Positions 2,047-6,132 of a stretch of DNA of 64,000 bases are shown piece by piece. Numbering within the stretch: position 1 is the first letter of the stretch; each line of letters starts with the position of its first letter. This DNA comes from a virus. The stretch is taken from positions 256,001 to 320,000 of IMG/VR virus record IMGVR_UViG_3300031992_000005; one strand, given 5' to 3'. The notes beneath the pieces were generated by a model. It searched no databases. It saw only the letters and a list, made by a program, of their open reading frames with translations, and had not been told where the DNA came from. A program made the position numbers and the translations under genes.

Positions 2047-2463
2047 ATGCTGTTGAAAAAAAGAGGTTTTCAGAAAGTAAACCTGAAGTTAATCTGAACA
2101 AAAAGAAATTATCTGACTATGATTCAATTCGTGGTGTTGGTAGAGCAGCTCTTTTAGGCCTACCATATAGAACTGGTGGTATGGTCGGGAACTTAATAGG
2201 TGTAACTGCAGGATTAGCCGCAGCAAATTCTGCAGATGAAAAAGGTAAGTCTAGGAAAGAGATCGTCCGCGATGCTACAAGAACAGGTGCTATCACGGGA
2301 GCCATTGCAAGTCCTTTAGCTAGGACAATTTTTGCAAAGGGTAATAGAAAAAAAAATCGGTGCTCTAGCAGCATCTTCTGCACTTGGTGCTTTAGGTGGT
2401 GGATTGGGTGCTAGAAAAAATACAAAAGAACGTCTCTGGAAGAGAGATAAAAACAATCAATAA
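2047..2463 (+). pseudogene. Leader-tagged glycine-zipper protein interrupted by two frameshifts at poly-A tracts (pseudogene, recoded gene or assembly error)
   Basis: ATG at 2047 (frame 1) reads MLLKK and stops after 16 codons. After the A7 run (2056-2062), frame 0 reads KRFSESKPEVNLNKKKLSDYDSIRGVGR ... AKGNRKK. After the A9 run (2348-2356), frame 1 reads IGALAASSALGALGGGLGARKNTKERLWKRDKNNQ and stops at 2461-2463. The reconstructed protein is collinear with the paralogues at 2507 and 5539. Confidence 0.6.
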
Positions 2464-2506
2464 CCTAACTCGTATAATGTCGAGTAAAATTATTTAAGAT
2501 AAATTT

Positions 2507-2950
2507 ATGATAATTATTAGAACTAAAGAATTCTCTGAAGAAAAAAAGAGTAAGAGATCGAGAAATTTGAGTGAATATAGCTCTGGTCGTGGATACGGTA
2601 GAAGCCTACTAGGTGGTCTCTCTGGTGTTGCAGGTACTTATATGGGATCTAAAGAGGCAACTAAGGCTGACCGAGAGGGAGATTCTGATGAAGATATCAT
2701 TGATAGAGCTACTAGAAGAGGTGCTCTGGTCGGTGGTTTAGGTGGTGCCGGTTTTGGATTAGTTCATGGTCTCTCACAAGGAGGTGTAGCCCCAGGTCTG
2801 ATAGGAGCAGCAAGTGGTGCTGCAGGCGGTGGAATATTCGGCGGCTGGGGTGCTAACAAAAACACTAGAGTCCGTCTAGAAAAGAGAAAAGAAGATGAAT
2901 TAGAGGATAAGCTAAAATACTACAAGCACTCTAAGGACAAGAAGAAGTAA
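2507..2950 (+). CDS. Leader-tagged glycine-zipper protein (SGRGxGR / KKNT family)
   Basis: N-terminus MIIIRTKEFSEE. Contains LSEYSSGRGYGRS, long GxxxG runs (GALVGGLGGAGFGLVHGL, GAASGAAGGGIFGGWGA), and NKNTRVRLEKRK. Confidence 0.65.
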   Translation: MIIIRTKEFSEEKKSKRSRNLSEYSSGRGYGRSLLGGLSGVAGTYMGSKEATKADREGDSDEDIIDRATRRGALVGGLGGAGFGLVHGLSQGGVAPGLIGAASGAAGGGIFGGWGANKNTRVRLEKRKEDELEDKLKYYKHSKDKKK

Positions 2951-2999
2951 CGAAAAAAAACAATAATATTATGATTGACGTACTTATTTATTCATTAGC

Positions 3000-3039
3000 C
3001 ACTGCAATGATAGTTTTATCGAATTACAGTGTCTTTTTT
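3000..3039 (+). terminator. Putative rho-independent terminator
   Basis: CACTGCAAT (3000-3008) pairs with ATTACAGTG (3023-3031) with one mismatch, followed by TCTTTTTT. Confidence 0.45.
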
Positions 3040-3105
3040 GGAGGAAGGAGTTAATCCTTACCTCTCACTCTTCCAAGAGTATGGTACGTCATTACAAGCT
3101 ACATT

Positions 3106-4971: not shown

Positions 4972-4981
4972 ATTTGTGGCT

Positions 4982-5182
4982 ATGATTATTATCAGATATA
5001 AAACCTTCGCTCAACAGGAGAAAGCTCCACAATGGATGCTGGATGAGGAAGGAGTGATTCACCAGGATACGGATGGATCTTGGAGAATAGTTAATAGAAG
5101 AAAAGGCACTCTCTGGAATGCTAGGTATAAAAGCAAAGAATCTGCTCAGGCAGGACTTAGAGGGTATTTTGCAAATAAGTAG
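4982..5182 (+). CDS. Leader-tagged small hypothetical protein
   Basis: ATG at 4982 gives MIIIRYKTFAQQ, matching the leader. The track start at 4976 is a GTG two codons upstream. Confidence 0.55.
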   Translation: MIIIRYKTFAQQEKAPQWMLDEEGVIHQDTDGSWRIVNRRKGTLWNARYKSKESAQAGLRGYFANK

Positions 5183-5191
5183 TAGTTTATT

Positions 5192-5389
5192 ATGATAGTC
5201 CTAAGACAAAAACAATATAGTTTTCTTAAAAAGAACCTATATAATAGACTACTAGAAAGAACAAATAAGCAACTTCGTAATATTCAGGAGCTATCTAGGA
5301 ATAAATTTGTTGTAGTTACTAATAAGGGTAGACAAATTTTTGAAAAAGCTAAGAGGGCTAGGTTTAGACTCCTGAATATGTTAAAGTAG
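5192..5389 (+). CDS. Leader-tagged small basic protein
   Basis: N-terminus MIVLRQKQYSFL; 65 aa, K/R-rich. Confidence 0.5.
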   Translation: MIVLRQKQYSFLKKNLYNRLLERTNKQLRNIQELSRNKFVVVTNKGRQIFEKAKRARFRLLNMLK

Positions 5390-5538
5390 GCGATTCTAGT
5401 AAAATGGAACATTAGAAATTTCCATAATTAAGGTAATACTTAAAAATTAAGAAACCTAAAAACATAGGTCTTTTACTAAAAATAGTGAGAGACGCGTTAA
5501 ACAATAAACTAAATAATTTGAAAATATAATAAAGAATT

Positions 5539-6132
5539 ATGTTAATTAAGCGTAACGTATATTTCTCCGCAATTGATGAAGATGGAGAAGAGAGATTGTA
5601 CTCCACTACTGAGGTAATGGATGAGCAGGATTATATTGAAAGACTGTATGCAGAAAATCACAGCCTCCATGATGAAAATTTGAGCAAGTATCAATCCGGA
5701 CGTGGACTAGGTAGATCTTACTTCTGGGGTGGTGTAGGTGGTTTAGGCGGTACTGCAGCAGGTAACATCGCCGCTTCAATCGCAGATAGAAAGGGAAAAA
5801 CTGACGAAGAGCAGGCTAAAATTGCAAAAGCAACAGGTACTGCCGTAGGTGCTGGTATAGGCGCAGGTATGGGTGCCTTAGCAGTAAAATCCCTCAGAAA
5901 GAACTCTAAAACGCTGTTTAATAATGGGTTGAAGAAGCAGGGAGCCGCTAATAGACTTCTCGCATCTAAGTATGGCAAGGGAATAGTTGGTGCAGGAATG
6001 GCTGCAGGCGCTCTAGGTGCATATTTAGGTACTAAGAAGAACACCCAGGCCCGTCAGGACAAGAGATTGAACAAGGAGTGGAGTAAAGAAGAAGTACGAA
6101 GAGAGGATGCTAGAAAAGCAGGTGTTAAGTAA
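5539..6132 (+). CDS. Glycine-zipper protein with long-variant leader (SGRGxGR / KKNT family)
   Basis: N-terminus MLIKRNVYFSAIDEDGEERLYST, near-identical to the start of 34117. Contains YQSGRGLGRS, GGVGGLGGTAAGNIAASIA, AVGAGIGAGMGALAV, and GTKKNTQARQDKR. Confidence 0.65.
   Translation: MLIKRNVYFSAIDEDGEERLYSTTEVMDEQDYIERLYAENHSLHDENLSKYQSGRGLGRSYFWGGVGGLGGTAAGNIAASIADRKGKTDEEQAKIAKATGTAVGAGIGAGMGALAVKSLRKNSKTLFNNGLKKQGAANRLLASKYGKGIVGAGMAAGALGAYLGTKKNTQARQDKRLNKEWSKEEVRREDARKAGVK

Follow-up and report, generated by a model that had tools for sequence, protein, structure and literature searches.

A leader-tagged, glycine-zipper protein family beside the terminase of an uncultured jumbo phage: candidate membrane-active virion cargo

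This work describes a protein family, here called family A, encoded beside the terminase in a 64,000-nucleotide (nt) stretch of viral DNA (the window), which comprises bases 256,001-320,000 of IMG/VR virus record IMGVR_UViG_3300031992_000005, a 353,025 bp virus genome with direct terminal repeats. Three genes of the window, beginning at positions 2047, 2507 and 5539, belong to this family. Their products are best explained as small basic phage proteins, in which a leader ending in [KR]-x-[FY]-S precedes a core modelled as three helices, with conserved polar motifs at the ends of the predicted bundle. In the aligned sequences these motifs are S-H/G-R-G-x-G-R-S, an acidic KAD.EGKSD.EI turn and a basic LGAKKNT..RL.KR tail. 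The proteins are candidates for cargo that would be loaded into the phage head by the leader, and that may act on the host membrane at entry.

Results

Three paralogs of a family new to the databases searched

The family A genes of the window are:
2047..2463, + strand: paralog 1, broken; conceptual product of about 138 amino acids (aa) with all family motifs
2507..2950, + strand: paralog 2, 147 aa, intact; 10-residue leader (2507-2536), then core
5539..6132, + strand: paralog 3, 197 aa, intact; acidic extended leader of about 39 residues, then core

A sequence-only reading of the window, which preceded this analysis, had proposed that these three genes share one architecture, and they do: 2507, 5539 and the conceptual 2047 product align over every element it listed, namely the leader, LS.Y.S.RG.GR, a glycine-rich helix 1, an acidic AD..G.S..E linker, AT..GA, a second glycine-rich part and a G..KNT..R..KR tail. 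All the genes it named, including those of the wider set described below, are present on the + strand at the positions given here. The paralogy stood for all three genes, and both 2507 and 5539 are intact, but 2047 did not hold up as an open frame, as it needs two frame shifts.

Several searches address whether this similarity merely reflects composition. Pairwise BLASTP comparisons of the three products, with leaders removed and composition corrected, gave E values from 4e-8 to 9e-4, and a whole-genome search with 2507 recovered 5539 at 2.7e-9 and a piece of 2047 at 1.9e-7. A six-frame search of the 353-kb genome found the 12-residue motif LS.Y.S.RG.GR exactly three times, exclusively in the family A genes, and a hidden Markov model (HMM) of the core found nothing above noise across the genome except these three. 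By these alignments, 2047, 2507 and 5539 are true paralogs, with similarity beyond composition. The mature proteins are small and basic, with computed net charges of +8 and +16.

The family extends well beyond this genome. When a profile of the three paralogs was compared with 1.84 billion cluster representatives, 197 matched at E<=1e-3 and 102 at E<=1e-10, with non-self proteins reaching E values as low as 1e-34; hence the three paralogs belong to a wider, previously unnamed family. The RG.GR motif is kept in 99 of the 155 family sequences examined, and the core consensus of these 99 reads, in order, L....S-H-R-G-L-G-R-S; GG..GA.G.Y.GK..A.K.D.EG.SD.EI; A...GA..GA..GA..G; a variable loop; and GALGG.LGA.KN...RL.KR. 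Conservation reaches 90% or more at R-G-x-G-R, at the glycine of the EG.SD turn, at a single glycine of the zipper, and at the tail's G and K; G72, G76 and G80 of 2507 are invariant or nearly so. The leaders are of several types, and between one and six [FY][SA] motifs precede the core in 94 of the 99 members, the last of them a median of 17 residues ahead of it. Some homologs, such as P0002, P0026 and P0067, contain two whole cores in tandem, as fused duplicates (225-287 aa among such members).

No database source searched gave any member of this family a name. Family A has no significant match in Pfam, PHROG or NCBIfam (sub-threshold matches only, and in Pfam none at E<=0.1), and a tblastn search with 2507 against 50,697 phage records returned no match. 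A word-index search found nothing with 2507 alone, and with a 49-sequence profile found 12 proteins, all unnamed; a pattern scan of viral contigs for family A gave five pattern matches, none of them confirmed. The paper describing Jug phages (PMC12880540) makes no mention of proteins of this type. Judged by these searches, family A is previously undescribed, and new to the databases searched.

A shared leader ends in a candidate prohead-protease site

All long frames of the window lie on its + strand, and two features frame the genes discussed here:
3106..4971, + strand: large terminase, 621 aa, matching annotated large terminases of large myoviruses at E values down to 9e-40
6829..13239, + strand: head-assembly block of 428-aa (protease-like, 6829-8115), 284-aa, 929-aa and 483-aa proteins, in which the leader end motif [KR]-x-[FY]-[ST] recurs

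The product of 19003-21228 matches tail sheath, and that of 38896-44490 (1,864 aa) contains a metallopeptidase domain of a type known in tape-measure proteins and endolysins. Because terminase, sheath and tape-measure-type matches are all present, the window is the virion module of an uncultured contractile-tailed jumbo phage. The metallopeptidase domain is internal to the tape-measure-like protein, at about residues 1000-1150, and its gene closely follows the series of tagged glycine-zipper genes at 33470-37798.

Within this module, about 27 genes begin with the leader MIILR.K.[FY]S, or variants of it, and several of them encode otherwise unrelated head-module proteins. A comparison of codons found that they vary among the copies of the leader, hence it is conserved as a peptide; its interpretation as a conserved DNA signal, either a promoter or a ribosome-binding site, is thereby ruled out.

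The motif that ends the leader also recurs in the putative head-assembly proteins. There are 15 copies of [KR]-x-[FY]-[ST] in the 929-aa acidic protein, against 0.4 expected from shuffled sequences, with five against 0.3 in the 284-aa protein and four against 0.6 in the 428-aa protein, representing a 7- to 37-fold enrichment across the three. In the 483-aa capsid-like protein, the motif is found near the N-terminus, at residues 36 and 59. Such a distribution would be expected if the motif were cut by the prohead protease. No [KR]-x-[FY]-S site lies within the family A bodies, meaning they would survive such processing intact. In the 929-aa protein (8970-11759), the copies often stand in the repeated contexts YMERLF[ST] and TETRFFS, giving it the appearance of a scaffold that is cut into pieces.

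The tagged proteins are also distinguished by their basicity. A crude gene call of the whole genome, which defines all tagged and untagged counts in this work, gave 27 tagged genes (leader or variant) and 425 untagged genes. The median isoelectric point (pI) was 9.9 for the tagged proteins and 6.1 for the untagged (Mann-Whitney p = 8e-13), with a pI above 9 in 23 of the 27 tagged proteins versus 95 of the 425 untagged. Given the leader, its end motif and this basicity, the tagged proteins are probably virion cargo loaded by means of their leaders.

The leader itself exists in several forms. An extended version, about 40 residues long (M-L/Y-I-K/R-R-x-V-Y/F-F-S .. GEERL-Y/F-S-T ..), precedes bodies that differ from one another: it is found at 5539-5655 and 34117-34230 in the window, on gene 7512 of the sister-phage contig L020 described below, and in contigs L006 and L008. 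It is the commonest type among the family homologs (33 of 99), and AlphaFold 2 (AF2) models it as a beta-hairpin with one [FY]S motif per strand. In a 290-kb ENA contig of a related huge phage (L017, positions 2290-11316), a different leader, M-E-I-Q-R/K-I-Y/F-S .. ERLYSV .. LFS, with three [IL][YF]S motifs, stands on a family A gene and at least five of its neighbours, one of which has an HELGH motif; in the same contig, the start of a GNAT-domain gene is shorter and carries two [FY]S motifs. Across these sequences, the leader appears to evolve with the [FY]S motif kept.

Cargo genes are exchanged beside a near-identical core

The terminase gene is a conserved anchor that family A genes adjoin, both here and in related phages. 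Family genes lie near the terminase in five other contigs: in the more distant relatives, directly upstream in L018 and L026 and 1.5-2.3 kb downstream in L017 and L030, and also in L020. Two IMG/VR relatives have no family gene near the terminase.

The closest comparison is with L020, a 9.7-kb ENA contig from a sister phage. Relative to this contig, positions 1-7100 of the window are a mosaic, in which the core genes are 91-100% identical and the cargo genes exchanged. The terminase is 99.4% identical, the portal-like protein 97.5%, and the start of the 428-aa gene 100%, whereas the cargo genes have identities of 49-81%, and of 59-81% for those that can be paired. The genes at 306-830 and 2507 are absent from L020, and other tagged genes stand in place of 6214. 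The body of 5539 is replaced by an unrelated glycine-rich body, behind a 42-residue leader that is 90% identical. Conserved intergenic stretches at 6151-6208 (90%) and 6751-7000 (97%) flank the swapped gene at 6214-6747, and may be recombination or processing boundaries.

Synonymous divergence by the Nei-Gojobori method (dS) was 0.19-0.22 in the terminase and portal-like genes, versus 0.9-1.7 or saturation in the cargo genes, such that cargo dS is 4-8 times that of the core. The ratio of nonsynonymous to synonymous divergence (dN/dS) in the pairable cargo genes was 0.08-0.20. The combination of raised dS and low dN/dS rules out simple fast positive selection as the cause of the cargo divergence. 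Instead, it indicates that the cargo genes are functional cassettes exchanged among diverged lineages. Hence the cargo set is best explained as an exchangeable, mosaic accessory arsenal, not as core structure.

These comparisons bear directly on whether the sequences are mere low-complexity filler, rich in glycine and alanine through composition and without specific function. The glycine-rich stretches do vary in length and sequence, and the wider tagged set is not a single BLAST family, as such filler might be expected to behave. However, non-repetitive polar motifs are kept in the 99 members with the RG.GR motif, non-self profile matches reach E values of 1e-34, the pairable cargo genes have the low dN/dS given above, and the terminase-adjacent position is conserved. 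For family A this explanation is already largely refuted, and it is very improbable overall.

A broken reading frame in one paralog

The ATG at 2047 reaches a stop after 16 codons, and the family reading of this gene begins in frame 1 (2047-2061), passes to frame 3 (2061-2351) and returns to frame 1 (2353-2463). Homopolymer runs lie at both junctions:
2056..2062, + strand: A7 run; a -1 shift or one extra A joins the MLLKK start to the family frame
2348..2356, + strand: A9 run; a +1 shift or one A less reaches the GALGGGLGARKNT tail

The core HMM matches both pieces, at E values of 7e-19 and 3e-10. At the position of 2047 and 2507, the sister phage has one intact 149-aa family gene, with 48% identity to the 2047 reading and 38% to 2507. 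Gene 2047 could be a recent pseudogene, the product of a homopolymer error, or a gene whose expression depends on slippage.

Glycine-zipper arrays are concentrated in the tagged proteins

The other proteins of the window that the sequence-only reading had described as dominated by glycine zippers are:
2..286, + strand: 3' part of an untagged 125-aa gene that starts 91 nt before the window; same C-terminal helix as 6214, with an AY.HHKYKK tail
6214..6747, + strand: tagged 177-aa protein; C-terminal single Gly/Ala helix, then an aromatic/Lys-rich tail, Y.YHKHKKK
15805..16107, + strand: 100-aa protein, 42% Gly+Ala; MATYRLKRK-type leader
17301..17705, + strand: tagged glycine-zipper protein, 134 aa; related to 37385 (E 2e-5)
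18277..18960, + strand: tagged 227-aa protein; two N-terminal Gly/Ala helices, C-terminal globular part
22667..24274, + strand: tagged 535-aa protein; N-terminal glycine-zipper stretch, large C-terminal part
33470..33874, + strand: 134-aa protein; MIIRQKEFG leader variant, two Gly-zipper helices
35502..37346, + strand: tandem paralogs 35502-36488 and 36504-37346; MSLIVRLKRK-type leaders, three Gly-zipper helices with long basic spacers, net charges +33 and +28
37385..37798, + strand: tagged glycine-zipper protein, 137 aa; alone in exceeding the threshold of a Pfam glycine-zipper family (PF13488, 28.3 bits, cut-off 25)

All of these contain [GAS]xxxGxxx[GAS] arrays, at the C-terminus in the case of 6214. 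With an array defined as at least four such motifs within 40 residues, nine of the 27 tagged genes carry one, versus one of the 425 untagged (Fisher p = 2e-11), confirming the proposed concentration among the leader-tagged genes of the virion module. The description of these sequences as glycine zippers fared less uniformly: the spaced motifs are present, with 6-13 overlapping (G,A,S)xxxGxxxG-type motifs within 40 residues in 2507, 5539 and 37385, but 37385 alone scores high enough for a Pfam glycine-zipper family, and the three paralogs fall short.

The set does not descend visibly from one ancestor. BLAST divides it into family A, the pair 35502/36504 (E 2e-22), the pair 37385/17301 and singletons, leaving a single homologous origin of all tagged glycine-zipper proteins without support. 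A more sensitive hhalign comparison aligned the half of 37385 comprising a hairpin and basic tail with family A (probability 92%, E 6e-7), and a weak profile link joins 17301 to family A, although compositional bias is possible in both. The tagged glycine-zipper proteins outside family A are best explained as the same type of cargo in independent, or very distant, versions.

Two arrangements recur on otherwise dissimilar proteins. One is a C-terminal module resembling a tail anchor, in which a single Gly/Ala-rich helix is followed by an aromatic/Lys tail of the A-Y-x-H-Y-K-x-K-K-K type; it is found at 2-286 and 6214-6747 in the window, and in six genes of contig L006 within 14 kb around the terminase. 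The other is the leader variant MIKFK[RK]KEF[ST], which at 18277-18960, 22667-24274 and L008 4476-5807 is followed by N-terminal Gly/Ala helices and a larger C-terminal globular part.

Predicted structure and capacity for membrane insertion

The structures were modelled with AF2 from shallow alignments of 15-16 sequences. The model of 2507 (15 sequences) had a predicted local distance difference test score (pLDDT) of 79 and a predicted template modelling score (pTM) of 0.70, with a disordered leader (residues 1-17), a short helix over the RG.GR motif (28-35) and long helices at 38-56, 61-92 and 94-146. That of 5539 (pLDDT 73, pTM 0.58) had the same three long helices at 57-84, 89-130 and 137-193, behind a 39-residue leader folded as a beta-hairpin and helix, and some 35 inserted residues separate helix 2 from helix 3. 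From the order of helices in 2507, the glycine-rich parts of helices 2 and 3 are predicted to form an antiparallel hairpin with a tight turn, and the models suggest that the acidic turn between helices 1 and 2 of family A lies near the basic tail.

The glycine-rich helices are charge-free, of membrane-spanning length and only marginally hydrophobic. The three longest charge-free runs have family-wide median lengths of 23, 18 and 16 residues, with basic residues flanking them, and two such runs of at least 15 residues are found in 92% of members, versus 10.5% of untagged proteins of similar size. Marginal hydrophobicity would be expected of proteins that are soluble in the producing cell and insert into a membrane later, but it would suit just as well a bundle that stays soluble and never encounters a membrane. 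Only 18277 in the whole set has a classical transmembrane-like helix, its helix 2, with the sole negative insertion-energy sum (-0.2 kcal/mol) and a Kyte-Doolittle value of 2.18.

Several observations weigh against proteins that are packaged in the head and act on the membrane after ejection. Firstly, the best 19-residue windows of family A score 1.24-1.35 on the Kyte-Doolittle scale, below classical transmembrane thresholds, and simple sums on the Hessa scale are +4 to +5.5 kcal/mol. Secondly, in 5539 and many homologs helices 2 and 3 are joined by a long, basic loop, which does not suit a simple hairpin whose two ends face the same side of the membrane. Thirdly, conservation peaks at the polar motifs, not at the glycine stretches, and could reflect a specific protein or DNA partner instead. 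Fourthly, neither Foldseek searches of family A against PDB and BFVD at E<=1e-3 nor a sequence-profile search of PDB found anything meaningful; the top non-significant Foldseek rows are membrane proteins (TolQ/ExbB and AcrB helices), and are not counted as evidence. Fifthly, this phage has a contractile sheath, as well as a tape measure that contains a peptidase domain. Sheath and tape measure are normally enough for DNA entry, therefore a separate capsid-borne DNA channel is not obviously needed. Finally, tagged genes also occur among the tail genes, hence the capsid is not their only possible location.

Many of these features would suit internal head proteins that work within the capsid, as counter-ions to the DNA, in its packing, or as minor core components, with Gly/Ala helices that self-associate and have no membrane role. 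The tagged proteins are strongly basic, the basic motifs at both bundle ends are the best-conserved columns, AF2 gives a compact, soluble-looking bundle, and the hydrophobicity is under transmembrane thresholds. T4 provides a precedent, as its IPIII influences head assembly (PMC9026906). However, family-wide charge-free runs of 16-23 residues are unusual in a soluble protein of 140 residues, and a role as counter-ions alone leaves the conserved glycine spacing unexplained. Furthermore, phages whose head core proteins are 97-100% identical differ by gain, loss and swapping of these genes, hence the head itself does not need them. A purely intracapsid role is therefore a credible but unlikely explanation.

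Alternatively, the proteins could reside in the membrane of the infected cell without being packaged, as holin- or antiholin-like proteins, superinfection exclusion factors or assembly anchors, with the leader serving some other purpose. The basic residues flanking the glycine-zipper helices, the similarity of the C-terminal helix and aromatic/Lys tail to tail anchors, and the match of 37385 to Pfam Gly-zipper_Omp all fit such a location, and T4 proheads form on the inner membrane (PMC9026906). Yet the leader is short and basic, with no signal peptide, and the same leader is found on soluble-looking proteins without glycine-rich stretches; its end motif is enriched in scaffold-like proteins, and present in the N-terminus of a capsid-like protein, and the hydrophobicity of the helices is too low for efficient Sec/YidC insertion. 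No endolysin or spanin was found beside the genes, and the sole lysis-type PHROG match among the ten proteins scanned is the tape-measure peptidase domain. As holins in particular they are poor candidates, with hydrophobicity under the threshold and neighbours that are terminase and head genes. This second alternative is quite improbable, less so only than the filler explanation.

Discussion

The proposed explanation of family A is a chain of steps from assembly to entry. The leader, like the T4 capsid-targeting sequence, would bring the protein into the prohead core, where the head protease would cut at [KR]-x-[FY]-S. The mature basic protein could then be kept alongside the DNA, folded into a compact and soluble bundle of helices, and be ejected together with the DNA at infection. 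In the host cytoplasmic membrane, the glycine-zipper hairpin may insert or oligomerise, such that the membrane is permeabilised or depolarised, or co-injected cargo is helped across, as with the glycine-zipper effectors of type VI and type VII secretion systems (T6SS and T7SS). Should these proteins be virion cargo, membrane action is moderately favoured; the chain as a whole, from tag through packaging and ejection to membrane action, is proposed tentatively, as falling somewhat short of an even chance. The suggestion in the sequence-only reading that these are packaged and ejected proteins fits the end-motif pattern, the basicity and the mosaic turnover; the membrane activity that it suggested, whether in DNA passage, depolarisation or superinfection exclusion, is conjectural. 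One may go further and suppose that the huge phages of this clade carry exchangeable, injected viroporin-like glycine-zipper proteins, stored as soluble bundles, which open or depolarise the host membrane at entry. That generalisation is unlikely, but were it true, co-injected tagged proteins could reach the cytoplasm, or defences dependent on membrane potential be disarmed, making it a phage counterpart of T6SS glycine-zipper translocation.

The principle of tagged internal proteins is already known from T4 and giant phages, but the literature searched yielded no class of glycine-zipper cargo. If the proposed chain is correct, membrane-active glycine-zipper proteins are a new class of tailed-phage head cargo, recognisable from a sequence signature of leader, RG.GR, EGKSD turn and KKNT tail, and phage entry becomes linked to the permeabilisation mechanism of T6SS and T7SS glycine-zipper proteins. 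The short leader and defined protease site could serve to load proteins into phage particles, and the mosaic cargo cassettes beside near-identical core genes would be a natural place in which to search for host-range and counter-defence determinants. If the chain is wrong, family A nevertheless stands as a genuine family of phage proteins, conserved, unannotated and comprising about 200 clusters.

Among known glycine-zipper proteins, the outer-membrane lipoprotein families of Pfam (PF13488 Gly-zipper_Omp, PF13441 Gly-zipper_YMGG and PF13436 Gly-zipper_OmpA) have a hairpin of two glycine-rich helices of the same type as that predicted here, but the proteins of this phage have no lipobox or signal peptide, and the RG.GR, EGKSD and KKNT motifs are specific to family A. 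Secreted effectors offer a second comparison. Membrane permeabilisation and translocation of the T6SS effector Tde1 depend on its glycine zipper (PMC10240207), and EsxX, a glycine-zipper toxin of T7SS, depolarises membranes (PMC12744356). The N-terminus of Tde1, EsxX and TelE (PMC10434224) share with the proteins described here GxxxG runs on marginally hydrophobic helices. Such effectors also have to remain soluble in the cell that makes them and, once injected, act on the cytoplasmic membrane of the target, as the proteins of this phage presumably would. However, there is no sequence relationship (the sole T6SS-related match, to NCBIfam BTH_I2691, has an E value of 0.034, and 12.7 bits against a cut-off of 150), and no toxin or immunity partner is seen here.

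The ejection (E) proteins of SPN3US, phiKZ and 201phi2-1 have propeptides that are removed by the prohead protease (PMC5694885, PMC7411985, PMC10052503). The similarities are a giant myovirus-type phage, many propeptide-like N-termini in the head module, and paralog families of cargo; the differences are that no homology was detected (no PHROG match) and that the cleavage motif is another. A limited literature search found no report of a glycine-zipper class for the three phages.

The most detailed parallel is with T4, in which a 10-residue capsid-targeting sequence (CTS) is cut off by gp21, the same enzyme that processes the scaffold and the capsid N-terminus, and the basic internal proteins are present at about 360 copies each (PMC9026906). 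These proteins are poorly conserved among relatives of T4, and IPI has a role in an arms race (PMC9026906). As with the CTS of IPI, IPII, IPIII and Alt, about ten N-terminal residues are common here to otherwise unrelated proteins, and this tag ends at a motif also found in scaffold-like proteins and a capsid-like N-terminus; in both systems the cargo is small and basic, and the cargo genes are mosaic while the head core genes are conserved. The systems differ in their site, which here is [KR]-x-[FY]-S and in T4 is L/I-x-E, in the number of tagged genes (about 27 versus four), and in the leaders, some of which here reach about 40 residues, with two or three sites and a predicted beta-hairpin. 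Glycine-zipper proteins make up a third of the cargo here, unlike the T4 internal proteins, and packaging and cleavage are putative in this phage. Neither the cargo nor the 428-aa protein has a PHROG or Pfam match to the T4 internal proteins, Alt or gp21, hence the tag system of this phage is an analogue of that in T4, not a member of it. If the proposed chain holds, the T4 principle of a tag plus internal proteins extends to uncultured jumbo phages, in the form of a much larger and modular tool-kit subject to horizontal exchange.

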